40,140 nucleotides of DNA from Acidimicrobiia bacterium (GCA_035282865.1 DATEVB010000238.1:1-40140), one strand, 5' to 3'; positions 2,556 through 20,002 are shown, counted from the first letter of the stretch. Notes: generated by a model from the sequence alone, not told the origin. Made by a program: numbers and translations.

Positions 2556-2709
2556 GCCTCCTCACCTCATACCGTCCGGGGCCGCTCCCGCAGCCAATCC
2601 GCCGGCCACCCGAGGCCGGGGCGGGCGATTTCACGGCGGACCGTGATGACAATACGTCGGCATCCGGCACTCAGAATCGAGCCGAGGTCTCTGCTAGATC
2701 CGAGCGATG

Positions 2710-3057
2710 CTAGGCGGCTGTGAACACCATCCCGTAGTACTTGTCGTAGGCGCCCTCTCGCACCACCTTGACCTCACCCTGAACCGCCATCCCCATCTTG
2801 GGGTTGTCGACCTCGAGCTGCCCGGTGATCCGCAGGCCGTTCTCCAGTTCGACGATGCCCAGTCCCAACGTCGGCACCTCGAACTCGGCCGGCAGGTTGT
2901 AGACCTTGGTGAAGGTCAGCAGCTTGCCCTTCTTCGGAAGCGGCACGATATCGAACTCGAAAAAGCCGTTCTGCCGGCACTCCTTGCAGACCATCCGGAA
3001 GGGATAGTGCAGATGACCGCATTTGCGACACTTATAGGCGTAGATCTCGCGAGCCAT
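2710..3057 (-). CDS. DUF35 family Zn-ribbon / OB-fold protein (thiolase-associated)
   Basis: Zinc ribbon CRKCGHLHYPFRMVCKEC is followed by an OB-fold-like C-terminus. Its ATG shares one nt with the stop of the upstream thiolase-like gene (TGATG). Confidence 0.85.
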   Translation of the reverse strand: MAREIYAYKCRKCGHLHYPFRMVCKECRQNGFFEFDIVPLPKKGKLLTFTKVYNLPAEFEVPTLGLGIVELENGLRITGQLEVDNPKMGMAVQGEVKVVREGAYDKYYGMVFTAA

Positions 3058-4232
3058 CAGTCCTCCCTCACAAAGGTCAGGCAGACAACGTTGTTGCCAA
3101 AACCGCCGAAATTGCAGGTAAAGCCGACCCGGGCTCCGTTGACCTGGCGGTCGCCGGCCTCGCCTCTGAGCTGCGTCACGATTTCGTGAGCCTGGGCAAC
3201 TCCGGTGGCACCGACCGGATGACCCTTCCCCTTCAACCCACCGGAGGGATTGATCGGCAGGGACCCGTCCAACGCGGTTTGCCCTTTCTCGAGGGCAATG
3301 TGTCCTTCGCCCTTCGGGAAGAACCCAACCTCTTCACTCTCGACGATCTCGAGGATGGTGAAGGCATCGTGCAGCTCCGCTACGTCTACATCCTGCGGTG
3401 TCAACCCGGCCATCTCCAACGACTTGGCAGCCGCCCGACGCACGGCCAGCAGATCGGTCGGTTCTTCCCGCTCGTGTACGGCGTGGGTATCGGTCGCCTG
3501 ACCGATACCGGCCAGGCGTATGGGTGGCCGATCGATGGTCTTGGCGACGTCTTCGGATACCAGGATGACCGCCGCTCCCCCGTCCGACACCGGACAAGCG
3601 TCGAAGAACCGCAGCGGTTCCGCCACATACGGGTTGTTCGTCATCGCTTCCGGCGAATCGAGGATGCCCTCGAGCGTGATCGGCTGGTGCAGGTGGGCGA
3701 ACTCGTTCAGCATGGCGTTGTTCTGGTTCTTGACCGCCACCATGGCCAGATGCCGTTCGGTCACACCGTACTTCTCCATGTACAGGCGAGTGAACATCGC
3801 CGCGTGGGACGGCAAGGTGACCCCGTATATGTACTCGGCCAGTGGATGGGTGAGGGTGGCGATGAAGTCGGTCGCCTCGAGGTTGTTGACCTCCCGCATG
3901 CGTTCGGCACCGCTGACCAGCACCACGTCGTGCAGACCTGATGCCACTGCCGCGAACCCGGCCTTGATGGCCGAAGCTCCCGAAGCCGGACCATTCTCGA
4001 CAACCGCCGCTCCGGCCGGAGTGAGACTCAGGCTGTCAACCACCGCACTGGCCAGCGCCGTCTGGTGGTTGATCCTCGCACTGCCCATGTTGGCCACGTA
4101 CAGGTGATCCACATCGGTGATCCCGGCGTCGTTCAGCGCCATCATCGATGGGTAGGCAGCGATCTCGGAGACCGGATACTCGAGCCGCGTGAAGCTGGTG
4201 ATGCCTATCCCGACTACGTATACGTTACGCAT
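3057..4232 (-). CDS. thiolase-like protein (SCP2/archaeal-thiolase type), apparently lacking catalytic cysteines
   Basis: MRNVYVVGIGITSF..., DACPVSDGGAA, GGLKGKGHPVGATG and NFGGFG are typical of SCP2/archaeal thiolases. The start was refined to ATG 4232, downstream of a GAGGGGAGA SD. The nucleophile motif reads GPASGAS and the HDCF motif reads HDAF. Confidence 0.85.
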   Translation of the reverse strand: MRNVYVVGIGITSFTRLEYPVSEIAAYPSMMALNDAGITDVDHLYVANMGSARINHQTALASAVVDSLSLTPAGAAVVENGPASGASAIKAGFAAVASGLHDVVLVSGAERMREVNNLEATDFIATLTHPLAEYIYGVTLPSHAAMFTRLYMEKYGVTERHLAMVAVKNQNNAMLNEFAHLHQPITLEGILDSPEAMTNNPYVAEPLRFFDACPVSDGGAAVILVSEDVAKTIDRPPIRLAGIGQATDTHAVHEREEPTDLLAVRRAAAKSLEMAGLTPQDVDVAELHDAFTILEIVESEEVGFFPKGEGHIALEKGQTALDGSLPINPSGGLKGKGHPVGATGVAQAHEIVTQLRGEAGDRQVNGARVGFTCNFGGFGNNVVCLTFVRED

Positions 4233-4983
4233 GATCCGTCTCCCCTCGGAGAGCATTACGCTGCGCAATGAGGGCGGTCGCCGTCGGGTCGTACATGGAC
4301 CTGGTGGCCGCCAACAAGTCGGCCGGGGGCGTGGGTGGATCCGACGGTGGCAGGATCTTGGCTTCCGCTTTGGCAAGAAGCTCCGGCGGAACCGGGCGCC
4401 GCCCCACGACCAGGGTCGAGCGGGCTCGATCGAAGAGCTCCTTGGTCAGCGACCACGACGGCACGCCGCCCAGCTCATGGGGCGTTTCGAACCGTTTGTC
4501 GAGCTGATATTCGATCATCCAGCGACGGAATCCGATCGGTGATTCGGCCACGACCAACACCTCTTTGTGCCCGAGGATGTCGATGTGGTATTCCATCTTG
4601 GCGGCGAAAGCGTGCGCGCCCACCCGCAAGCCGCGCCGGAGGGCGATGGTGTGCAATGACATACCAAGATCCCCCGACACCTGCCGCCCGTTGACGACGG
4701 CCGCCAACTCTCCTTCGATCTGCGCGATCAGCACGTACTCGTCTTGAGCCCGGTACCGGTAGTGAGCCAGCAACTCGGAGTAGATGCGGGCGCATACGAC
4801 GTCGTAGTAGTCCCGCTCGACGTGGAGGAGCGGCTCGAGATACGGCAGGACGTCGGGAATCTCGTCCCGATCGATCTGCCGGATCACCATGTGCTCGCCG
4901 CTCGCCAGCGTCATGTACTTCGCTTCGAACGGCTTCAAAGGGTGGTCTTCTGGACGGAGAATCCTCTCCAGGTCAACAGCCAT
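4225..4983 (-). CDS. hypothetical protein (possible GNAT-like acyltransferase fold)
   Basis: It sits in-operon between the Mo-hydroxylase and thiolase-like genes. Start ATG 4983 has GGAG about 10 nt upstream. The segment LHTIALRRGLRVGAHAF loosely resembles the GNAT R/Q-x-x-G-x-G/A motif. I recognised no firm family. Confidence 0.6.
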   Translation of the reverse strand: MAVDLERILRPEDHPLKPFEAKYMTLASGEHMVIRQIDRDEIPDVLPYLEPLLHVERDYYDVVCARIYSELLAHYRYRAQDEYVLIAQIEGELAAVVNGRQVSGDLGMSLHTIALRRGLRVGAHAFAAKMEYHIDILGHKEVLVVAESPIGFRRWMIEYQLDKRFETPHELGGVPSWSLTKELFDRARSTLVVGRRPVPPELLAKAEAKILPPSDPPTPPADLLAATRSMYDPTATALIAQRNALRGETDHA

Positions 4984-4996
4984 TGCGGTACATCTC

Positions 4997-7378
4997 CTAC
5001 TCCTCACTCTTCTCTCTCAACACCGATAGCGCCACCTTCTCGGCGGTGATCGGCATCGATGTGATGCGGACACCCAGGGCGTCCTTGATGGCATTACCGA
5101 TCATCGGCGCCGCCGGGATCATGGTGTGTTCTCCCACTCCTCTGGCCCCGAAGGGCCCGTCCGGCTGGGCGATCTCGATGATGATCGGAATCGTCTCTTC
5201 TGGTATGTCGTGGGCCGTCGGGATCTTGTAGTCCGTGAAGTTGGGGTTCAGCAACCGCCCGTCCTCCCCGAACCGCATGTCCTCGTAGAGGACCGTGGCC
5301 AGACCCTGGACGATCCCGCCTGTGATCTGCCCTTCGATGAGACTGGGGTTGATGGCCTTGCCGACGTCGACAGCCAGCGCCACCTTCTTGACCTTCATCC
5401 GGCCGGTTTCCCGGTCGACCTCGAGCACCACCCCGGCTGCCCCCACCGTGTAGTGGACGTTGGGATGACCGCCCTGACTGGTCTCGGGGTCACTGCGGGT
5501 CGACGTGAACTCGGGCATGAACTTGCCGGAACCCACGATCGGTCCACCCTTGAAGGTGCCGTCCGTGTCTTCGAGCCCGTCGATGACAAAATCTTTCAAC
5601 GGCAGCTTGAAGTCGGGATCGGTGCTGGACCGGACGCTCTCATCCTCGAGATAGAGCGACTCCTCTTCGTAGCCGTGCACCCGATGCACAACGTCGAAGA
5701 TCTTCTCGCGGGCCTCGACCGCGGCTGCATGCACGGCATTACCGCAGCTCCACGTAACATGCGAGGCAACCGTCTGCCACTCATAGGGGTTGCGGTCGGT
5801 GTCGGGGGTCTCGACCCGGATCTTGGTAGGAGGCACCGCCAACACCTCCCCGGCAATCTGGGCCATGGCGGTCATATACCCCTGGCCGAGCTCCATGCCC
5901 GAGACGGAGATGTTCATGCTGCCGTCCTCATTGAACTTGAGGAATGACGCCGACGAGGCGTTGGGCGGCATGGCCGGCGCCTTCCAGAACACGGCGAAGC
6001 CCTTACCGATCGCTTTGTTGGGGTCGTCCGACGTCTCTTCCTTCCCCCACTCGATGGCATCTGCGGTTCGATCGATGGCCTCGATCAACCCGGATGGATT
6101 CATCTCCGCTCCGTAGGCGAGGATATCGCCCTCAACAATGGCGTTCTTGCGCCGGAACGCGACCGGATCCATCCCGATGGCCTCGGCGACCCGATCGACA
6201 TGTGATTCGAGCCCGAACACGAACTCCGAATACCCGAAGCCGCGGTACGGACCACCGGGCGGCAGGTTGGTGTAGATGCATTTGGAGTCGATCCATACGT
6301 TGGGGACACGATACGGGCCGGTGGCCGACAACCCGGCGGCGTTGACCACATTGGCTCCATATTCGACATAGGCGCCGGCGTCCCAGTTGAGGATGTGCCT
6401 GATGGCAGTGATCGTGCCGTCGTTCTTGACACCCATCTTCAGGTGAGCGACCAAGCCCTGCCGCTGGTAGGTGTTGTAGAACTCCTGCTCCCTGGTAAAC
6501 CGGATCTTGACGGGATGGCCCTTGGCCGCGGTAGCGAGGGCCGCGCCCATGATCTCCATCGAGACGCCGGCTTTCCCACCGAATCCTCCACCCACGTACG
6601 GGGTGATGACCCGGACGTCCTTGTGAGACAGGCCAAGCGGAGCGAGCGCTTCTGCAAAGAGATGCCGCTGCGTGTACGGTGACTGCGACGCCGACCACAT
6701 GGTCAGACGGCCGGATTGGTCGTAGAGCCCGACGATCACATGCGGTTCGATCGCACAGTGTGCATACCTGGGCACCCTGTACTCGCCCTCCAACACCAGG
6801 TCGGCTTGGGCGAAGCCCCGCTCGACGTCACCCTTGCGAGTCTTGCGCCAGTGGGCGATGTTCGTGTTTTCGTGCGGGTAGAACCACGGGACGTGCGCGT
6901 AGTCGCCCAGATCCGGATGGATCAGCTCGGAATCCGGTTTGAGGGCTTCGAGCGGATCAAAGATCGGGGGCAGCTCCTCATAGGTGACTTCGACGAGCTT
7001 GGCGGCCCGTTTGGCCACCTTGGGGTCGCGAGCGATGACCGCCGCCACTTGTTCACCGACGAAGCGGACCCGGTCCTGGGCAAAAACGTACCGGTCCTTC
7101 ATGTACAGCCCGAACTTGAACGGGAAATCCTTCCCGGTGACGACCTTGGTCACACCGGGGACGGCTGCCGCCGCCGAGGTGTCGATGGCCTTGATCAAAG
7201 CGTTGGCGAAGGGGCTTTCGACGATCTCCGCGTACAAGAGGTCGGGACCGAAATCGAGGTCGTCCACGTACCGGGCCGCACCCGAGACCTTCTCCAATCC
7301 GTCCACTCTCACGGCCGCCTTGCCAACGAAATCGAGGCCGCGGGTGCTTTCTCGCTCGAACGGTCTGAGCGTCGTCAT
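4997..7378 (-). CDS. xanthine dehydrogenase family molybdopterin-binding large subunit
   Basis: It contains VGGGFGGKAG, a C-terminal GARGVGE (catalytic Glu context) and aldehyde-oxidase/XDH a/b hammerhead-like N-terminal VDGLEKVSGAARYVDD. Start ATG 7378 overlaps the 2Fe-2S subunit stop (ATGA). Confidence 0.9.
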   Translation of the reverse strand: MTTLRPFERESTRGLDFVGKAAVRVDGLEKVSGAARYVDDLDFGPDLLYAEIVESPFANALIKAIDTSAAAAVPGVTKVVTGKDFPFKFGLYMKDRYVFAQDRVRFVGEQVAAVIARDPKVAKRAAKLVEVTYEELPPIFDPLEALKPDSELIHPDLGDYAHVPWFYPHENTNIAHWRKTRKGDVERGFAQADLVLEGEYRVPRYAHCAIEPHVIVGLYDQSGRLTMWSASQSPYTQRHLFAEALAPLGLSHKDVRVITPYVGGGFGGKAGVSMEIMGAALATAAKGHPVKIRFTREQEFYNTYQRQGLVAHLKMGVKNDGTITAIRHILNWDAGAYVEYGANVVNAAGLSATGPYRVPNVWIDSKCIYTNLPPGGPYRGFGYSEFVFGLESHVDRVAEAIGMDPVAFRRKNAIVEGDILAYGAEMNPSGLIEAIDRTADAIEWGKEETSDDPNKAIGKGFAVFWKAPAMPPNASSASFLKFNEDGSMNISVSGMELGQGYMTAMAQIAGEVLAVPPTKIRVETPDTDRNPYEWQTVASHVTWSCGNAVHAAAVEAREKIFDVVHRVHGYEEESLYLEDESVRSSTDPDFKLPLKDFVIDGLEDTDGTFKGGPIVGSGKFMPEFTSTRSDPETSQGGHPNVHYTVGAAGVVLEVDRETGRMKVKKVALAVDVGKAINPSLIEGQITGGIVQGLATVLYEDMRFGEDGRLLNPNFTDYKIPTAHDIPEETIPIIIEIAQPDGPFGARGVGEHTMIPAAPMIGNAIKDALGVRITSMPITAEKVALSVLREKSEE

Positions 7379-7851
7379 CCCGTTGCCTCCCCTCCGGCAT
7401 GGGCTGCCGCCAGGACGGCATCGATGATCGGATCGTATCCGGTACACCGGCAAAGGTTGCCGCCGATCGCCTCCTGGACGTCTTCTCGGGTTGGGCGGGG
7501 ATTCTCCTCCAGGAGTTCAGCCGCCGCCAGTACGATTCCGGGCGCACAAAAGCCGCACTGGAATGAGTTCATATCGACGAAGAACTGCTGGAGTTCGGTC
7601 AGCCCCTCGTCGTCCAGCCCTTCAATGGTGACCACCTCGTGGCCGTCGGCCTCCACCGAAAGGACCAGGCAGCTCCGCACCGTGTGGCCGTCGAGCAGCA
7701 CCGTGCAACTCCCGCAATCCCCCCGCTCGCATCCGATCTTCGGGCTCTTCACGCCGACCTTGGACCGGAGCGTTTCGAGGAGCACATCGTTGGGTTCGAC
7801 CGACAGCAACCACGGTTCGCCGTTGACCGTGACCGAGACATCCATTCGCAT
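7375..7851 (-). CDS. (2Fe-2S)-binding small subunit of the Mo hydroxylase
   Basis: Cysteine motifs CERGDCGSCTV, CGFCAPG and CRCTGY are typical of the XDH/CoxS family. Confidence 0.9.
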   Translation of the reverse strand: MRMDVSVTVNGEPWLLSVEPNDVLLETLRSKVGVKSPKIGCERGDCGSCTVLLDGHTVRSCLVLSVEADGHEVVTIEGLDDEGLTELQQFFVDMNSFQCGFCAPGIVLAAAELLEENPRPTREDVQEAIGGNLCRCTGYDPIIDAVLAAAHAGGEATG

Positions 7852-7859
7852 CCGTCCCC

Positions 7860-8750
7860 CTACATCAAGTTGGTTCCGTAGGAAGGCCCGTTGCCTTCCA
7901 GCCGTTCCACGGCAGCCTTCAAGCCCCGCTGCAACATCACTTCCGACATTCGAAGCCGGTATTCCTTCGATGCCCTGATATCGGTAATGGGCGAGATCTC
8001 CTCGGACACCAGTGCCATGGCCCGGGCGACCAGCACCGGATCGAGCGCCTTACCCTCCAGAAGCGCTTCGACGCGCCGCGCCCGCACGGGCGTGTCGGCC
8101 ACCGCCCCGAAGGCAACCCGGAACCGATGATCGGGTGGCGCCAGAATGGCAACGCTGGCCTGAGCGAGGTCCTCACCTTCGTAGCGACTGAGCCGGACAA
8201 AAGCGGCGCCGTGGCCGCCGGGCGGTACCGGCACCACCACTTTGGTCACAATCTCACCCCGACCGAGCGCCGTCATGCGTGGTCCGAGGAACCACTCGTC
8301 GATGGGAATCCGGCGGGTACCAGCAACTCCGACGGTATGGACCACCGCTCCGTACACGAGGAGTACCGGCCCGGCATCACACGAGGGCACGGCCGAACAG
8401 ATGTTCCCGACCATGGTGGCTCGATTGCGGATTCCGGTGGATGCCACAGTCGCCGCCATCTCGGAGATCAACGGCAGCCGGGCGGCGACCGGCCCCGAGT
8501 TGAGGAGATGAGTAAAGGTGACCAGCGAACCCATCGAAAGGGCGTCTCCTTCGTCGACGATCTCGCCGAGACCCTCGATCCGCTTGATATCGACGACCAG
8601 GTCGGGGGCGACCGCTTCGTCCCGCAACCAGGCAATGAGGTCGGTGCCACCAGCCAGCACCCGGACGTCACCGGCGTGCCCGATGAGGATCTCCAGTGCT
8701 TCGTCCAGCGTCTCCGGCCGCTCGTAATCGAACACCTGGGCGATCGTCAT
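7860..8750 (-). CDS. FAD-binding medium subunit of the Mo hydroxylase (CoxM/XdhB-like)
   Basis: It contains LAGGTDL and has a CO-dehydrogenase flavoprotein-like C-terminus. Start ATG 8750 is preceded by AAGGAGG. Confidence 0.9.
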   Translation of the reverse strand: MTIAQVFDYERPETLDEALEILIGHAGDVRVLAGGTDLIAWLRDEAVAPDLVVDIKRIEGLGEIVDEGDALSMGSLVTFTHLLNSGPVAARLPLISEMAATVASTGIRNRATMVGNICSAVPSCDAGPVLLVYGAVVHTVGVAGTRRIPIDEWFLGPRMTALGRGEIVTKVVVPVPPGGHGAAFVRLSRYEGEDLAQASVAILAPPDHRFRVAFGAVADTPVRARRVEALLEGKALDPVLVARAMALVSEEISPITDIRASKEYRLRMSEVMLQRGLKAAVERLEGNGPSYGTNLM

Positions 8751-8829: not shown

Positions 8830-10242
8830 TCAAGAGTTCCCTACTCCCCCGGCCAGCGCTTTGACCGCGTCGATGAAACACTCCATCGGGGCCTCCACCA
8901 GGCCCGCCCCGACCATCCCTATGCCGGGTTCCTTTCCCGCCACGCCGGTGTTGATCTGAGGACGAACCCCGGTGCGTACCACCAACATCGCGTCGATCCC
9001 GGTCGGTGTGCCCCGGAACTCCAGGATGGGTATCTGGTATGAGGGATGCTCGGCCATAGTTATCTCGTACATGGCCTGGGTCCGTTGGACGGCGCCGGCC
9101 GCGGTACCACCGACGAATCCGACGATGGCCGGCGAGGCGGCCATGGCGAACCCACCCAGGCCGATCGTCTCGGTGATGGCCGAGTCTCCGATGTCCGGGT
9201 TGGCGTCGTCGGCGGTGAACGACCCGAGGAAGAGACCGTCCACGATCGGGGCCGGAGCCGTGAACCACCGGTCGCCGGTCCCCGACAGCCGGATGCCGAA
9301 CTCGGTTCCGTTGCGGGCCATGGTCGTGACCAGGCTGGAATTGGCCACCCCGGACGCCGCATCGACGACCAGCTTCCCGGCTGCCATCACCAGGTTGAGC
9401 ATGAAGTGGTCGTTCGAGTCGATGAAGGAGTACACGGCCGAACGGTCGGCAACCGGTGCGGCGTCGCTCTCCACCAGCGCGGCGCCGATGGTCCGGAGCA
9501 GCAGGGAGGTTCCCGCTCGATTGCGATTGTGCCCGTCGTCTCCCATCTGCAGAGCCTGGGCGATGAGAGAGCGCAGATCAACGGGGCCGGTCCGTCGGAG
9601 GGCGTCTCCCACCACCGGTCCCAGCACCCGTTCCATCCACCGGAGCCGCTCGATGACCTCAGGGGAATAGGCCCCGTACCGAAGGACTTTGCCGAGTCCT
9701 TCATTGAGGGTCGAGTACGCCACTCCCCCGCTTGCGGGGTCTTGTACGACCAGCACCGGCATGGAAGGGCTGATGACGCCGGCCATCGGGCCGACCGCTT
9801 GATGATGGTGGCAGGGAGAGAATTCAACCTCACCGGCTTGGAGCTTGGTTGCCGCCTCCGCGGCAGTCGCCGCGAAACCTTCGTAGAGCATGGCGCCCAT
9901 CAGGGCCCCCCGCATGGGTCCGCTGGCATCCGCCCAGGAAAGCGGCGGCCCGGCATGCAGGAACATGCGCTCGGTCAATCCGGGGATCGCCGTGCCGGCC
10001 GGGACCACATCCACCAGGTGGGGACGAACCTCGAGCAATCGGGCGACGGCGAGCTGGTTGGCTTCCGCCACCGCCGGCGTTGCCGCCAGCTTGGCGAGGG
10101 CTGCTTCGGTTCCGCCGGCCGGCGGGCTCCACTCGGTCCTCCGCACCTCGACGCTCTGCGCCTCGAGCGCACCGGCCAGCACTTCGACCCCGACCGTCAC
10201 GATCACCGGCTCGGTGTCGAGGAGGCGTTGGAGCTCACTCAT
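8830..10242 (-). CDS. DUF1116 family protein (YlbE/AllG-like)
   Basis: From memory, it aligns along most of its length to E. coli YlbE (LHAGPP, FSPCHHHQAVGPMAG, NEGLGKVLRYGAY, DSAITETIGLGG, INTGVAGKE.GIG). Start ATG 10242 overlaps the FdrA stop (ATGA). Confidence 0.85.
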   Translation of the reverse strand: MSELQRLLDTEPVIVTVGVEVLAGALEAQSVEVRRTEWSPPAGGTEAALAKLAATPAVAEANQLAVARLLEVRPHLVDVVPAGTAIPGLTERMFLHAGPPLSWADASGPMRGALMGAMLYEGFAATAAEAATKLQAGEVEFSPCHHHQAVGPMAGVISPSMPVLVVQDPASGGVAYSTLNEGLGKVLRYGAYSPEVIERLRWMERVLGPVVGDALRRTGPVDLRSLIAQALQMGDDGHNRNRAGTSLLLRTIGAALVESDAAPVADRSAVYSFIDSNDHFMLNLVMAAGKLVVDAASGVANSSLVTTMARNGTEFGIRLSGTGDRWFTAPAPIVDGLFLGSFTADDANPDIGDSAITETIGLGGFAMAASPAIVGFVGGTAAGAVQRTQAMYEITMAEHPSYQIPILEFRGTPTGIDAMLVVRTGVRPQINTGVAGKEPGIGMVGAGLVEAPMECFIDAVKALAGGVGNS

Positions 10243-11669
10243 AGGGCACCCCCTTCGACCAACGAGATTGCGTGGTTGGCTGCCGCAGCGTTGGACAGCC
10301 ACACAGATGCGCCGGCCTCGTTGAGGAGACGGGCCTGCCGATCACGATCCTGGGGATCACCCCTGGTGCCACACAGCGAAACCACCACCGCGGCTCCCTC
10401 GGCGATGGCCAGGGCGATCACCGGTGCCAGCTCAGAGGCCGGATCGGGATGGGCCCCGTGCCCGAGGACCACATCGAGCAGGACGACACCGATCTGCGGA
10501 TCATGAGCTGCAGCTTCCAGACGCTGCAACCTGAGCCGCTGGTCGATCATCGGATGGGCCCGGCCACGGGTGTATTCGTCCTCCCCGTAGTCGATGACCG
10601 TGTGACCGCCAGCCTGTTCGCGCTGAGCGATCGTCCCGAGGGAACCGGCCGCCAAGCGAGCAGCCTCGCTACTGAGGCTGCCACCCGAGAACAAGCCCCT
10701 GAGCATCCCGGGCCGATGGTCGTCCGTCGCGGCCGGCCAGGAGGCGTAGACGGGTGGCACCTTGCCCAGCAGATCCAGGGCTTGACGCACGGCTCCCTCC
10801 AGGGTGACTCCCTCTTCTCCGAGGAAGGCCAGCACGGTCGGTGTCGTGCATTCCTCGGTGGCCGCCCGCACCCGGGCGGCCACCTCGGGGGCAGGCGGTT
10901 TCGAGACCACAATCAGCACTTCGGTGCTGGGATCTGCATCGAGGGCGGCCAACCCACGCAACGTGGAAGAACCACCCACTTCGATCGACAGATCGTGGCT
11001 GCCGGTGCCCAACGCGTTACGAACTCCGACGCCGGCATCGTCAAGCAAGGAACAGAGTTGCTGGATACCGGTGCCGGCTGCACCAACGATGCCAACGGGA
11101 CCCGGTTGCACCACGTTGGCAAAGCCCAGGCCGACTCCGTTGACGATGGCCGTGCCGCAATCGGGTCCCATGACGAGCAGACCCAACCGGCCGGCGGCCT
11201 GTTTGAGCATCACCTCCTGAGCGCTCGGCACGTTGTCGCTGAACACCATCACGTCGAGCCCGTGCTGCAACGCGTCCATTGCCTCGATGAACGCATACTC
11301 GCCGGGAACCGATATCAACGCCAGAGTGGCTCCGGCGGCCGCCGATCCGACCACATGAGCAGGTGGAGCCGCCAGCATCCCGGAGTCGCGGGTGGTCCTG
11401 GCCGCCAGGGCCGCCTCGAGGACCTGTCGAGCATGATCGACCGCTTGCTCGTCGGCGGCACGCACCGCGACGATGAGGTCGTTGGGTCCGGCCTCGCCGA
11501 TCGACTCCACCTCGAATCCCATGCCGGCCAGCAACTCACGATTGAGGTCGGTCGCCATCGCCACCAAGGCCTCTTCTACCCCTTGGGCTTGCTGCAGCGA
11601 CCGGCTCACCTGCATCAGCCGCACGGAATCGTGGTAGGTGCCGCGGCGAACCTCAACGCTATCGATCAT
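10239..11669 (-). CDS. fdrA: FdrA family protein (succinyl-CoA-synthetase-alpha-like; AllF-like)
   Basis: MIDSVEVRRGTYHDSVRLMQVSR, LALISVPGEYA, VMVFSDNV, LLVMGPDCGT, VSKPP and GRAHPMID mirror E. coli FdrA. The ATG overlaps the upstream DUF2877 stop (ATGA). Confidence 0.85.
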   Translation of the reverse strand: MIDSVEVRRGTYHDSVRLMQVSRSLQQAQGVEEALVAMATDLNRELLAGMGFEVESIGEAGPNDLIVAVRAADEQAVDHARQVLEAALAARTTRDSGMLAAPPAHVVGSAAAGATLALISVPGEYAFIEAMDALQHGLDVMVFSDNVPSAQEVMLKQAAGRLGLLVMGPDCGTAIVNGVGLGFANVVQPGPVGIVGAAGTGIQQLCSLLDDAGVGVRNALGTGSHDLSIEVGGSSTLRGLAALDADPSTEVLIVVSKPPAPEVAARVRAATEECTTPTVLAFLGEEGVTLEGAVRQALDLLGKVPPVYASWPAATDDHRPGMLRGLFSGGSLSSEAARLAAGSLGTIAQREQAGGHTVIDYGEDEYTRGRAHPMIDQRLRLQRLEAAAHDPQIGVVLLDVVLGHGAHPDPASELAPVIALAIAEGAAVVVSLCGTRGDPQDRDRQARLLNEAGASVWLSNAAAANHAISLVEGGAL

Positions 11670-12505
11670 GCATTGCTCCCTTCAACAAGGAAATCGGCAG
11701 CCAACAGAATCCCGCAGGCCGTTGCTACCCCGGAGGTGTTCCCCATCATGTACAGACCGCCGACAGCCTCCTCCAGATCGCCTCTCCCGGTCAGGGCCTG
11801 GAGGAACGCCGCCACCGGATCGGCCACCTCGCCCGCCACGGCATGTCGCAGCAGCGCCGCCGACAAGGCAGTCGTGCGAAAAGGCGCCTCCATCAGGACG
11901 ATCGAAGCGACCTCGGCCACCATCCCGCCTGCCCCCACAGCACCTACCGCCGGACCCAGCAACCGCAAGCCGGACAGCATTCCGACCAGCACATCGTCCC
12001 CTTCCGGAGTGAGCCCTGCACCCCTCCCGAGCAGGGCACACATGGCGTGACGGACGGCGGCGGGATCGTTCCTCTTCAGCGACTGACCCAGGCCTCCATC
12101 GTCGGGAAATACGAATCGCGGCCGGGCATCCGCACATCTAGCGGCCACATCCTTCCGGGACACCGATCCCAGCGTTGGTCGCGGATCCCACCAGCGGACG
12201 ACCCTGACCTTTACGCTCCCTACCTCCAACCCGCCGTCTCCGACCACACAGCGGTCTCCGGATTGCGATCGGGCCGCATCGGCCGGCTCTGCCACGGTGA
12301 CGCCGTTGGGCAAACGCACCGCCTCACGCCCGGAGAGCACCAGCACATGCCCGCCCGCCTGCAGCCAAGCGGCGTTGCCCGAAGCACCCAGCAAGACCCC
12401 GGGTTTGCGGGGACCCTCCAGGAGATAACGCACCCCGCGACTAGCCGCCGCCGCCAACGACGTCGGGGCGGTCGCAATGCCCGTCGGGTGCGGCTTGGCC
12501 GGCAT
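11666..12505 (-). CDS. DUF2877 family protein (YlbF/AllH-like)
   Basis: The GAGLTPEGDDVLVGMLSGL motif is typical of DUF2877. The length (279 aa) is similar to YlbF. The start was set to ATG 12505, 10 nt after the amidohydrolase stop. Confidence 0.7.
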   Translation of the reverse strand: MPAKPHPTGIATAPTSLAAAASRGVRYLLEGPRKPGVLLGASGNAAWLQAGGHVLVLSGREAVRLPNGVTVAEPADAARSQSGDRCVVGDGGLEVGSVKVRVVRWWDPRPTLGSVSRKDVAARCADARPRFVFPDDGGLGQSLKRNDPAAVRHAMCALLGRGAGLTPEGDDVLVGMLSGLRLLGPAVGAVGAGGMVAEVASIVLMEAPFRTTALSAALLRHAVAGEVADPVAAFLQALTGRGDLEEAVGGLYMMGNTSGVATACGILLAADFLVEGSNA

Positions 12506-12515
12506 CCGTCCAGTC

Positions 12516-13616
12516 TCAGCCGAGGTCGACGATGGCTGCCACCGGGCCCCCTCCGGAAGGTCCCTGATGGATGGCCGCCACCGAGACGAACACGGCCGCA
12601 TCGTCGACGGCCGCGGCAACCACTCCCCCGACGGCACCCTTGATATGCCGATGGTGGTGCACATCGGAATCGTCGAGCGCTACCTGCCGGCGGCCGCGCA
12701 GTTTGGCGGTCGGATCCGCCTCACATTTCACGAACACGTTGACCAACCGGCCATCGAGGTCTGCCGGCCTCGCTCGATCGGGGAGGTCGAGGCCCGCCGA
12801 GCGGATCGCCTCGTAGACCCCTTCAAAATCGAGCGCATCCTTCATGACGCTGTGACCTATCCGGTACCGGCCTCCCGCGCCGCGTACGTTCCCGACGACA
12901 ACCGTTTGCGCCTGGTTCAGTTCGACACCCGACGAGCAGGAGGCCACCGAGGAATAGAGGGAGAGATCGTGGCCGATTTGATCTTCCGTCGGAATGATGT
13001 CGATTTCACCCAGGGCATAGGCGATGCCGAGCCCGGAAGTCCCGTTGGAGATGTTCATCGACTCGAGCGGCTCCTCGGTCACTACGGAATGGCCCCGCGA
13101 TTTGGCATCGTTGATAGTGTCCATCGTCAGCAGCGGCGTTTTGGTCTGCACATAGTGGACATCCGCCGGATCTTCGATGCCGGCTTCTCTCATGGCCCGC
13201 TTGACTCCCTCTGCCACCTTTTCGACCATGGCGGGCCGGCCGATGTCTTCAGGAAGAATCACCTCACTCATGGCGTAGCCAACCGCCAACCGTGGCTCAT
13301 TAGAGGGGTTGGCGTCGTCGGCCACCCGGGCAAACACCGTTGCATGTGGGGTGAGGATGCCGTCGGTTCCGCCCGACCAAACCATCGGAATCTCCTTGAC
13401 TTCCTCGAGGGGCCGGGTCCCCAGCTCCATGAGGACGTCACGGAAGGCGCGATCGGCGAGAATCCTGGTGAAGTCGTTGACGCCGCCGTTCCCTTCGGTC
13501 TTCCCGATAACGGCGATCACCTCATCGGCGCCGAACGCCCCCTGATCGATCAGCGACTTCATCCCCGACGCATCGGTGACACTCTCCAGGACGACCTTGC
13601 GTACTTCGATGGCCAT
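12516..13616 (-). CDS. ring-opening amidohydrolase of the barbiturase / cyanuric acid amidohydrolase (AtzD/TrzD) family
   Basis: 366 aa. It contains MAIEVRKV...[54 protein letters not shown] and [17 protein letters not shown]. The threefold Ser/Lys repeat pattern is typical of the family. ATG 13616 has GGGAGAG upstream. Confidence 0.85.
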
Positions 13617-18863: not shown

Positions 18864-19021
18864 GGTGCTCCTGCGGTGAGTGGACGGCTCGATCCGGGTG
18901 GAGAGCCGCCGGGACAACTTTTCCCCGGCGGCACCACCATACTCGCCCAACGGAGAAACCCATAGCGTTGGATGCAATCTCGGACCGTTCCCGGCCCTCG
19001 GACGGTTACCCTAGCTCGGCC

Positions 19022-20002
19022 ATGACGCCCGTTCGCCTCCACGCTGCTACGCCCGGTGACGCATCCACCATTCACGCGCTCGTCCGCAAGTCGGAGATCC
19101 ACGATCGAGAACCGCTCGTCACACCTTTCGAGGAGATCGTTGAGATGTTCGATGATCCCCACCTCGACAAGATCAACGACGTCCGGTTGGTCTTCATCGA
19201 CGACCGGGCGGTGGCCTGGGGTCGGATCTGGCATCACCCGAGCGGGGAGCGTTTGGAACGAGCGTATCTCGTCGGAACCGTCGATCCCGATTACCGGGGG
19301 CAGGGCATCGGGCGGGTTCTCTTCGCATGGCAATTGGATCGGGCGCGAGCGGTGTTGGAATCGTGCGATCACGACCTGCCGCGGTTCATACGCACCTCGG
19401 CTTGGGACTGGTTGACCGACGCCCAGCACCTCTACGAACACTTCGGCCTCCGGCCCGTACGCTGGTTCGACGAGCTCCTGCGCCCGCTCGAACCTCCCCT
19501 GGAGACCGCCGGGCCGGCCGGTGTGAAGCTCACATCCTGGAGAACGGACCTGATCGAAGAGGTTCGTCTCCTCCACAATCGAGCCTTTGCAGATCATTGG
19601 GGATCGGGGGCCGTCGACCCGGTCTCCTGGGCGAAACGCCTCACCGGCTACGGAACCTGCCTGGACCTCAGCGTGATCGCTTTGGCCGGGGACGAGGTGG
19701 TCGGCTACAGCATCAACGAGGTTCACCCGGAAAACGACGAACTGCTCGGCCGCAGGGATGGGTGGATCGGGACCTTGGGCGTCGACCGGGACTACCGGGG
19801 ACGAGGAATCGCATCAGCCTTGATCGCCGCATCCATGGACCATTTCCGGCGCGCCGGATTGACCCATGCCTCCCTGGGCGTTGACGCGGACAACCCGACC
19901 GGCGCGCATCGTCTCTATTACCACCTGGGTTTCGAGCTGGAGAAGCGCAGCGTCACGCACCAATTGGAATGGTCAGAGACGTCATCCGAAAGGGCTCTGT
20001 AG
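19022..20002 (+). CDS. GNAT family N-acetyltransferase with two tandem GNAT domains (mycothiol synthase MshD-like)
   Basis: There are two R-G-x-G-I-G/A motifs (YRGQGIGRVL; YRGRGIASAL). The overall length and architecture resemble MshD. The start was refined to ATG 19022. Confidence 0.75.
   Translation: MTPVRLHAATPGDASTIHALVRKSEIHDREPLVTPFEEIVEMFDDPHLDKINDVRLVFIDDRAVAWGRIWHHPSGERLERAYLVGTVDPDYRGQGIGRVLFAWQLDRARAVLESCDHDLPRFIRTSAWDWLTDAQHLYEHFGLRPVRWFDELLRPLEPPLETAGPAGVKLTSWRTDLIEEVRLLHNRAFADHWGSGAVDPVSWAKRLTGYGTCLDLSVIALAGDEVVGYSINEVHPENDELLGRRDGWIGTLGVDRDYRGRGIASALIAASMDHFRRAGLTHASLGVDADNPTGAHRLYYHLGFELEKRSVTHQLEWSETSSERAL

Follow-up and report, generated by a model that had tools for sequence, protein, structure and literature searches.

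In the archaeal complex of acetyl-CoA acetyltransferase (ACAT), HMG-CoA synthase (HMGS), and a DUF35 protein, the DUF35 scaffold bridges two enzymes with a shared coenzyme A (CoA) site, the CoA-bound intermediate is channeled, and a favorable step pulls an unfavorable one (PMC12960953). Here, we analyzed a 40,140-nt stretch of DNA from an Acidimicrobiia bacterium (the window, in what follows), in which exactly three minus-strand genes fill positions 2710-4983 and encode a DUF35 protein, a thiolase-fold protein (THL), and a 252-aa protein (O252). The trio resembles the archaeal complex in its three gene products and in that the ACAT/DUF35 pair is the nearest sequence relative of THL and the DUF35 protein. 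Unlike there, however, the nucleophile Cys is Pro, the third partner has a predicted GNAT fold rather than being a thiolase-fold HMGS, and the context points to pyrimidine catabolism instead of mevalonate synthesis. We tentatively favor a reading, to which we give somewhat less than an even chance, in which O252 would make malonyl-CoA from malonamate or ureidomalonate and THL-DUF35 would decarboxylate the malonyl-CoA, the three proteins forming one heteromeric enzyme that finishes oxidative pyrimidine degradation. The positions of the three translationally coupled genes, which overlap by 8 nt (O252 and THL) and 1 nt (THL and DUF35), agree with a preliminary description made from the sequence:

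2710-3057, minus strand: DUF35 protein, 115 aa (Pfam zf-ChsH2 and OB_ChsH2_C)
3057-4232, minus strand: THL, archaeal/SCP2-type thiolase-fold protein, 391 aa, start MRNVYVVG (Pfam, NCBIfam, and PDB alignments)
4225-4983, minus strand: O252, unannotated protein with a predicted GNAT fold, 252 aa (AlphaFold2 [AF2] and Foldseek)

Other relatives of the archaeal complex have taken different routes. PhlABC and SmaATase (MucABC) are bacterial descendants of the ACAT/DUF35 complex with new chemistry on cyclic 1,3-dicarbonyls, which kept CxS and GHx, lost HDxF, and have an HMGS-like third subunit (PMC12960953), whereas THL is without the Cys and keeps HDxF and GHx, and a Pfam search found no HMGS-like gene in its operon. 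The steroid side-chain aldolases Ltp2-ChsH2 and Sal-Shy share with THL the missing nucleophile Cys, a DUF35 partner (obligatory there), and nonthiolytic C-C chemistry on a CoA ester, as we propose for THL. Ltp2/Sal aldolases are defined by a YD(H/C)(F/Y) motif with a catalytic Tyr (PMC12329534); their YDHF or YDCY is HDAF in THL, they are distant kin, and there is no steroid context at this locus. The analogy to Ltp2-type aldolases that the preliminary description had drawn fails on this point, as the defining YDxF with its catalytic Tyr is absent. Judged by its motifs, THL is a third pattern beside the Friedel-Crafts acylases and the steroid aldolases, with Cys changed to Pro and HDxF and GHx kept, and it fails the defining motif of both groups. 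In KS-Q loading domains the nucleophile is replaced and His and Asn are kept, and these domains decarboxylate malonyl-thioesters. THL is like them and like Trypanosoma brucei SLP (TbSLP) in its replaced nucleophile and its retained enolate-stabilizing His/Asn, but it has Pro rather than Gln, Gly, or Ser, it is a free-standing protein of the thiolase-II/SCP2 type whose partners are the DUF35 and GNAT proteins, and its decarboxylase activity is putative. TbSLP, a thiolase-like protein without the nucleophile Cys, has been reported to decarboxylate malonyl-CoA (PMC12329534).

The oxidative route from uracil via barbiturate to ureidomalonate is known, is regarded as rare, and has had its biochemistry described from a few aerobes only (PMC3758960). 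The operon that ends in the trio appears to follow the same logic as the pathway of Rhodococcus erythropolis, with its uracil dehydrogenase, barbiturase, and ureidomalonase (PMC3758960), but none of its 10 genes encodes a ureidomalonase-type amidase by Pfam or NCBIfam; it has AllFGH-like genes and the trio, and is predicted to end in carbamoyl phosphate and acetyl-CoA, not urea and malonate. Escherichia coli AllFGH is an oxamic transcarbamylase that converts oxalurate and inorganic phosphate to carbamoyl phosphate and oxamate (PMC11326118). The three-gene set of the operon is homologous to it, and ureidomalonate is one carbon longer than oxalurate (PMC11326118), though the substrate of the operon's set is a prediction. 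In the searchable literature we found no description of the trio module, the cluster, or the O252 family, and what we infer to be new here is a thiolase-fold complex scaffolded by DUF35 whose catalytic pattern and GNAT-fold partner are both new, set in a variant oxidative pyrimidine pathway.

A thiolase-fold protein without the nucleophile cysteine

Both domains of the thiolase fold were recognized in THL by Pfam (Thiolase_N, 84 bits; Thiolase_C_1, 151 bits), and its NCBIfam match to PRK06064 lies slightly under the cutoff (396 versus 420 bits). The closest solved relatives are archaeal-type, namely 7yvy (E = 4e-78), 4yzo (E = 1e-75), and the Methanothermococcus ACAT 6esq_A (E = 2.8e-62), in agreement with the earlier by-eye alignment to SCP2/archaeal thiolases. 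In HMMER alignments, Pro82 of VENGPASG falls under the nucleophile Cys of 7yvy (EAACASG) and of 6esq; the change from C-A-S-G to G-P-A-S-G first read by eye is borne out, and in the alignment THL has no Cys at this position. The same alignments place ELHDAFT (residues H288-D-A290-F) under the HDxF motif, which is HDCF in 6esq. The GHPVGATG and NPSGG motifs are both present, and Asn328 and His338 of the enolate oxyanion hole are kept. Because ENGPASG, ELHDAFTI, His288, Asn328, and His338 are invariant in 79 full-length orthologs from the genome loci described below, the Cys-to-Pro change is not a sequencing error or a product of chance. Pro and HDAF are also kept in three far more divergent members of the THL family (clusters L086, L092, and L091).

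The solved acetyl-CoA acetyltransferase 7yvy likewise has HDAF, yet its nucleophile Cys is present, so the decisive change in THL is Cys-to-Pro and not HDCF-to-HDAF; the HDAF motif of the preliminary description is real and invariant, but it is not diagnostic alone. The label "cysteine-less" needs a similar restriction: the nucleophile Cys is gone, but Cys213 (DACP) is invariant in the 79 orthologs and Cys373 (TCNFGG) is present in 73 of these 79 close orthologs, with Val or Ile in divergent members. We take the position of Cys373 to be that of the acid/base Cys in the classical thiolase CxG motif, as known from Zoogloea. We do not favor Cys373 as a relocated acid/base residue, since it is not kept in divergent members, and their Val or Ile makes it unlikely to be essential. 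Pro82 removes the thiol and, going by the established thiolase mechanism, would also take away the backbone N-H that helps stabilize the acyl-transfer intermediate. In the second-best solved relative of THL, 4yzo (a "putative acyl-CoA acyltransferase"), Ser takes the place of the nucleophile and HDxF reads HDMA, so that 4yzo is another Cys-less member of the THL branch; no functional paper on it was found in the literature.

The GNAT-fold and DUF35 partners

O252 had no match in Pfam, NCBIfam, or PDB sequences, either as a single sequence or as a 31-sequence profile, and Acetyltransf_1 was touched weakly (E of about 0.01) by 2 of the 31 family members. An AF2 model built with the family alignment as input (predicted local distance difference test score, 86.7; predicted template modeling score, 0.81) gave 138 Foldseek matches in the PDB at E <= 1e-3, the best 50 of which were all GNATs, with E values of about 1e-6 at the top and identities of at most 17% among the matches listed. 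We are confident in assigning O252 to the GNAT fold, which is visible through structure prediction only. Where the preliminary description had seen at best a weak GNAT-like motif, the hidden Markov model search that it suggested yielded no Pfam or NCBIfam match, and the fold came from AF2 and Foldseek. Its label "orphan" does not hold, as 2822 homologs were found, every one of them labeled hypothetical. The family is compact (161 clusters at 50% identity in an exhaustive representative search), and the same search of 161 clusters found no bridge to any named family.

Five residues of O252 are invariant (S109, H111, G122, K129, and G151), with Ser109 and His111 on strand beta4. The loop at the motif-A position, R117-G-L-R-V-G122, has Arg at position 4, versus Gly in the GNAT consensus Q/R-x-x-G-x-G/A. 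In GNATs, this loop position binds the CoA pyrophosphate, and from the position of the loop in the model CoA binding by O252 is plausible. The C-terminal tail (residues ~216-252; 4225-4335, minus strand) consists of a linker rich in Pro (ILPPSDPPTPP) and, after it, a conserved LLAATR..YD helix that is modeled with low confidence. The tail is found in orthologs of at least 72% identity and is missing from divergent relatives, and it may be a docking peptide for THL/DUF35.

The DUF35 protein combines an N-terminal four-Cys Zn-ribbon (C10, C13, C24, and C27, each at least 90% conserved) with an OB fold, as described from the sequence earlier, and both domains of the DUF35 family (PF01796/PF12172; zf-ChsH2 and OB_ChsH2_C) pass the Pfam cutoffs. 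Its closest solved relative is 6esq_E (E = 9e-15), which is the DUF35 component of the archaeal complex of thiolase and HMG-CoA synthase, and the protein is presumed to be the scaffold and CoA-site partner of THL.

Pathway genes of the operon

The trio comprises the last three of 10 tightly packed genes with intergenic gaps of -8 to +79 nt, transcribed in the order barbiturase, AllH, AllF/FdrA, AllG, the FAD, 2Fe-2S, and Mo subunits of a Mo-hydroxylase, O252, THL, and DUF35. The seven genes that precede the trio in transcription are as follows:

4997-7378, minus strand: Mo-hydroxylase molybdopterin-binding large subunit, xanthine dehydrogenase (XDH) family, candidate uracil/thymine dehydrogenase (Pfam Ald_Xan_dh_C and MoCoBD_1/2)
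7375-7851, minus strand: Mo-hydroxylase [2Fe-2S] small subunit (Pfam Fer2_2 and Fer2)
7860-8750, minus strand: Mo-hydroxylase FAD-binding medium subunit (Pfam FAD_binding_5 and CO_deh_flav_C)
8830-10242, minus strand: AllG-like (DUF1116) subunit (Pfam PF06545 AllG, E = 3e-96)
10239-11669, minus strand: AllF/FdrA-like subunit, a relative of succinyl-CoA synthetase alpha (Pfam CoA_binding and Ligase_CoA; NCBIfam FdrA, 427 bits versus a cutoff of 433)
11666-12505, minus strand: AllH-like (DUF2877) subunit (Pfam PF11392 AllH, E = 1.6e-21), gene start adjusted using ortholog boundaries
12516-13616, minus strand: barbiturase, AtzD/TrzD ring-opening amidohydrolase family, operon gene 1 (PDB 5hwe; Pfam Amido_AtzD_TrzD)

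Gene 1 is 68% identical to the solved barbiturase 5hwe (E = 3.7e-155), whereas its matches to cyanuric acid hydrolases have E values of about 1e-93. It passed the NCBIfam AtzD equivalog as well, but the far stronger match to the solved barbiturase led us to reject a cyanuric acid hydrolase. Since gene 1 is a barbiturase, the ring-opened product is expected to be ureidomalonate (3-oxo-3-ureidopropanoate). A complete AllH/AllF/AllG-like set (8830-12505, minus strand) lies between the barbiturase and the Mo-hydroxylase genes and becomes a candidate for the next step because ureidomalonate is the CH2-extended analogue of oxalurate; by this analogy it may be a "malonamate carbamoyltransferase" that makes carbamoyl phosphate. 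Among the open reading frames of the window that were scanned, none encoded a carbamate kinase, and Pfam and NCBIfam revealed no CoA ligase or transferase in the operon. The Mo-hydroxylase is a three-subunit XDH-family enzyme, and related loci carry a UraA-like permease. Its Mo subunit has its best PDB match in the alpha subunit of 4-hydroxybenzoyl-CoA reductase (4-HBCR; 1rm6, 332 bits), well ahead of CO dehydrogenase at 265 bits and of the xanthine dehydrogenases at about 229 bits, and the match of the FAD subunit to the 4-HBCR beta-subunit model is weak and split.

Downstream, the operon is met by a convergent GTPase gene, and the remaining genes of the window are housekeeping genes (TypA, DEAD-box helicase, prolyl oligopeptidase, Lon, glycogen debranching enzyme, MFS transporter, and radical SAM). 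An unrelated 344-aa protein at 18968-20002 (plus strand) has a canonical GNAT domain at its C terminus (Acetyltransf_1, E = 1e-22). Scans for an operon promoter and terminator returned nothing above chance. Among sequencing runs, the locus turned up in DNA metagenomes of soil and sediment, and no RNA-seq run contained the THL gene.

Conservation and synteny of the trio

A scan of one genome per species yielded 80 genome loci (L001-L080), on which the linkage counts below are based. The O252 relatives found in it are 72-94% identical and all come from metagenome-assembled genomes (MAGs), those closest to the window locus being Acidimicrobiia MAGs. Their hosts belong to about ten phyla (Acidimicrobiia/Actinomycetota, Verrucomicrobiota, Ignavibacteria, Bacteroidota, Planctomycetota, Kiritimatiellae, Lentisphaerae, Gemmatimonadota, Zixibacteria, KSB1, and Eisenbacteria), and the clusters were sampled from soils, peat, sediments, and groundwater. 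THL directly follows O252 in all 74 testable loci and DUF35 comes next in 71 of 72, while XDH-family subunits share the locus with the trio in 56 of 80 (the Mo large subunit in 54 of 80) and AllF/G/H in 52 of 80.

Two arrangements recur. In Actinomycetota, the order is Bar-AllH-AllF-AllG-XDH(M,S,L)-O252-THL-DUF35, often with a downstream transporter that scores 341 bits as the UraA uracil permease versus 223 as a xanthine permease. In other phyla (type B), it is O252-THL-DUF35-AllH-AllF-AllG-[PF04199 cyclase-family hydrolase]-XDH(M,S,L), and in none of the examined loci were barbiturase and the PF04199 gene found together. Some loci hold the trio alone, the trio with AllH, or the trio with the cyclase. 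Unrelated lipid or steroid surroundings, which the preliminary description had named as evidence that would speak against its reading, were not seen, though some loci have none of the other pathway genes within 10 kb of the trio.

Median identities across L001-L080 were 81% for THL, 75% for O252, and 74% for the Mo subunit, versus 43% for AllF, 42% for AllH, 53% for AllG, and 57% for the FAD subunit. Such uneven conservation suggests either that part of the cluster has spread laterally not long ago or that the constraint is unusually strong, possibly through physical coupling.

The PF04199 cyclase (arylformamidase/isatin-hydrolase family) of the nonactinobacterial clusters was located in L081 (16188-17000), L086 (365-1156 and 13915-15552), and L092 (11288-11971), where no barbiturase was detected. 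L086 holds two versions, one single-domain and one duplicated (545 aa), and one minimal cluster consists of O252-like-THL-DUF35-cyclase and nothing more. The cyclase is possibly a nonhomologous hydrolase that opens barbiturate or an amide. Between the trio and the Mo-hydroxylase genes of L086 (7208-10036) lie a second O252 paralog (P0170, on the opposite strand), an LplA-B_cat lipoate/biotin-ligase-like protein, a Cys-rich DUF5714 protein, and a 111-aa protein. L094 (1160-2275 and 3941-10560) has the order O252-like-THL-DUF35-AllH-AllF-AllG with no XDH genes on the contig, and its neighbors encode a dihydroorotate/dihydropyrimidine dehydrogenase-like protein of the DHO_dh family, a flavoprotein resembling PNPOx, and two LacI regulators.

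Partners of O252-family proteins other than THL-DUF35

The contigs of divergent O252 relatives (30-45% identical) were examined. For two of these, P0139 and P0151, the next gene downstream encodes an MmdA-type carboxyltransferase (TIGR01117, 882 bits), accompanied by a biotin carrier and an OAD-beta Na+ pump, and no THL or DUF35 was found beside either. On L085 (3235-7490) and L089 (257-7441), O252 relatives of 37-42% identity directly precede an MmdA-type carboxyltransferase, OAD-gamma, a biotin carrier, and an OAD-beta Na+ pump, joined in L089 by genes for biotin ligation (BirA) and biotin transport (BioY); no pyrimidine genes were seen near these two sets, bar a Bmp nucleoside-binding lipoprotein in L085.

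A metagenome scan with a barbiturase alignment returned 80 further loci and revealed a second class of cluster, in which barbiturase-AllFGH-XDH genes are accompanied by an O252 paralog (35% identical, E = 4e-37) followed, after 2 nt, by a 540-aa fused AccD/AccA-type carboxyltransferase and then barbiturase. In the example L159 (7550-11101; also L136, L139, L156, and L175) the O252 paralog is N-terminally extended, and a dihydropyrimidinase and a PIG-L-family deacetylase lie upstream. Of the 80 metagenome loci, the two that resemble the window are the only ones with THL and DUF35, even at E < 0.01. In a third class, a carbamate-kinase-like (amino-acid-kinase) gene stands immediately upstream of barbiturase (23 metagenome loci, including L122 at 2659-3603), often with hydantoinase A/B, a family-III CoA-transferase, and the same carboxyltransferase (also L143 and L173), which looks like a different completion of the barbiturate pathway.

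O252-type proteins were always found with one of three modules, namely THL-DUF35, the AccDA-like carboxyltransferase, or the Mmd-type decarboxylase, and the latter two act on malonyl- or methylmalonyl-thioesters. Such a swap of partners is as expected if THL-DUF35 is a malonyl-CoA decarboxylase to which O252 supplies the thioester. The malonate and (methyl)malonyl-CoA decarboxylases (MdcD/E, MmdA-BCCP-OAD-beta, and AccD/A-type) appear as alternative partners of the O252 family with the same proposed net reaction, though their carboxyltransferase fold is crotonase-like and unrelated, and some are biotin dependent. That O252 itself is a GNAT-type malonyl-CoA decarboxylase was considered and judged unlikely, as it always lies beside a second, decarboxylase-type partner.

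Proposed function and competing explanations

We propose the following sequence of steps for the operon. The Mo-hydroxylase would oxidize uracil or thymine to (5-methyl)barbiturate, and barbiturase, or the cyclase-family hydrolase in other phyla, would open the ring to ureidomalonate. AllFGH would then phosphorolyze the acylurea to carbamoyl phosphate and malonamate, by analogy with oxalurate phosphorolysis. O252 would move the malonyl group from the amide N to the CoA thiol, the reverse of the usual GNAT reaction; where AllFGH is absent the donor could be ureidomalonate, with urea as the better leaving group. THL, which without a thiol should be unable to form an acyl-enzyme and keeps the enolate-stabilizing Asn328/His338 pocket, would use that pocket to decarboxylate malonyl-CoA to acetyl-CoA and CO2 (or methylmalonyl-CoA, from thymine, to propionyl-CoA). 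The DUF35 protein would scaffold O252 and THL and help form a shared CoA site, and the irreversible decarboxylation would pull the unfavorable formation of the thioester. By a rough estimate, the amide-to-thioester step is uphill by a few kcal/mol and the decarboxylation more than pays for it; that the uphill step would need such coupling is our proposed reason why the trio genes are never separated. The suggestion of the preliminary description, non-Claisen chemistry such as decarboxylation on the C3 product of ring cleavage, gains support from the barbiturase, from the locking of the trio to the pathway across phyla, and from the carboxyltransferase partners found where THL-DUF35 is missing, although the activity itself is a prediction.

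Several points weigh against this proposal. We know of no precedent for a GNAT that runs from amide to thioester, and the reaction with malonamate depends on coupling. No proton donor for the enolate is evident, with Ala290 in HDAF and a Cys373 that divergent members do not conserve. Within 10 kb of the trio, 24 of 80 loci have no XDH gene and 28 of 80 have no AllFGH, so the substrate could be more general; the PF04199 cyclase takes the place of barbiturase in nonactinobacterial clusters and its role is a guess; and the resemblance of the Mo subunit to 4-HBCR would also suit a pathway with CoA esters as its intermediates from the first step. The carboxyltransferase partners could equally mean carboxylation and not decarboxylation. 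Finally, TbSLP decarboxylates very slowly (kcat, 0.005 s-1) and CtSal not at all (PMC12329534), so that loss of the Cys alone does not make a decarboxylase.

Some of the evidence can be read without a role for CoA. It is conceivable, if unlikely, that THL-DUF35 turns ureidomalonate or malonamate directly into N-acetylurea or acetamide, with the oxyanion pocket acting on the acylurea or amide carbonyl, while AllFGH phosphorolyzes N-acetylurea and O252 works elsewhere, for example in N-acyl transfer or detoxification. The lack of a CoA ligase or transferase in the operon would then be natural, N-acetylurea is as close an analogue of oxalurate as ureidomalonate is, and the retained His/Asn pocket is compatible with such a reaction. 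However, the GNAT, thiolase, and DUF35 folds are all classical binders of CoA-thioesters, O252 paralogs have acyl-CoA carboxyltransferases as partners, and the strict coupling of O252 to THL would be left unexplained. The coupled genes might instead encode a pseudoenzyme, THL being an inert scaffold that with DUF35 merely holds O252 active as the sole catalyst, such as an N-acyltransferase on a pathway intermediate. Pro at the nucleophile position does abolish the canonical chemistry, and some Friedel-Crafts acylase subunits are structural relics in a complex that is needed for activity (PMC12960953), but we regard this as less probable again, given that His288, Asn328, His338, and the motifs around them are invariant and that THL-DUF35 is elsewhere replaced by bona fide catalytic carboxyltransferase domains and not by nothing.

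The remaining alternatives change the substrate or the type of reaction. Rather than being specific to pyrimidines, the trio could act as a general module on the malonyl- or beta-carboxy-amide units of several N-heterocycles, or belong to a CoA-ester pathway fed by a 4-HBCR-like Mo enzyme, as the nearest relative of the Mo subunit, the cyclase-family hydrolase in place of barbiturase in most nonactinobacterial clusters, and the trios that stand alone or with unrelated neighbors (one variant beside a DHO_dh-family gene) would allow. This seems improbable when barbiturase, the UraA-like permease, and dihydropyrimidinase recur near O252-family genes and the FAD subunit matches the 4-HBCR beta-subunit model so weakly and in split form. 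A C-acyl transferase or deacylase of the Friedel-Crafts type acting at C5 of barbiturate, modeled on PhlABC/SmaATase with O252 in place of the HMGS-like subunit, is quite improbable. The ancestral ACAT/DUF35 pair has already been repurposed for C-acylation of cyclic 1,3-dicarbonyls (PMC12960953, PMC6392133), and barbiturate is such a compound, analogous to phloroglucinol or tetramic acids; PhlABC and SmaATase, however, need an acetylated Cys (Cys88/Cys87) and have lost HDxF, the opposite of the THL pattern. To our knowledge, no acyl-barbiturate metabolism has been described. We see the least probability of all in a lyase of the Ltp2/Sal type that would run a retro-aldol or retro-Claisen reaction on a ring-derived beta-hydroxy or beta-oxo acyl-CoA: Ltp2-ChsH2 and Sal-Shy do combine a Cys-less thiolase fold with a DUF35 partner, but the catalytic Tyr of YD(H/C)(F/Y) is absent and HDAF is invariant in its place, Ltp2 (6ok1) is distant (E = 7e-30 versus 4e-78 for archaeal-type thiolases), and neither a hydratase nor a beta-hydroxy intermediate is evident in the pathway.

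Implications for pyrimidine catabolism and thiolase-fold complexes

Whatever the exact chemistry, the strict linkage of the three genes and the interchange with carboxyltransferases make the malonyl-CoA decarboxylase hypothesis testable with three small soluble proteins. The clusters extend a variant of the oxidative pyrimidine pathway, with different terminal enzymes, to uncultured bacteria of many phyla. If the proposed function is true, it would give a role to the unannotated O252 family with its 2822 detected homologs, set apart thiolase-fold proteins with Cys-to-Pro and a retained HDxF as a new functional class, and widen the repertoire of DUF35-scaffolded complexes, with a route for anaerobes to conserve energy from nucleobases. 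In a bolder version, which we hold to be doubtful though far from negligible, the trio would be the energy-conserving end of a widespread, undescribed anaerobic "oxidative" fermentation of pyrimidines, combining a GNAT in reverse, channeled malonyl-CoA, a CoA site built with DUF35, and a Cys-to-Pro decarboxylase. The products from one uracil would be carbamoyl phosphate (via AllFGH) and acetyl-CoA, worth up to two ATP by substrate-level phosphorylation, versus the urea and malonate of the classical route, and the trio would represent a new type of GNAT reaction and a third outcome in the evolution of the archaeal ACAT/DUF35 complex.

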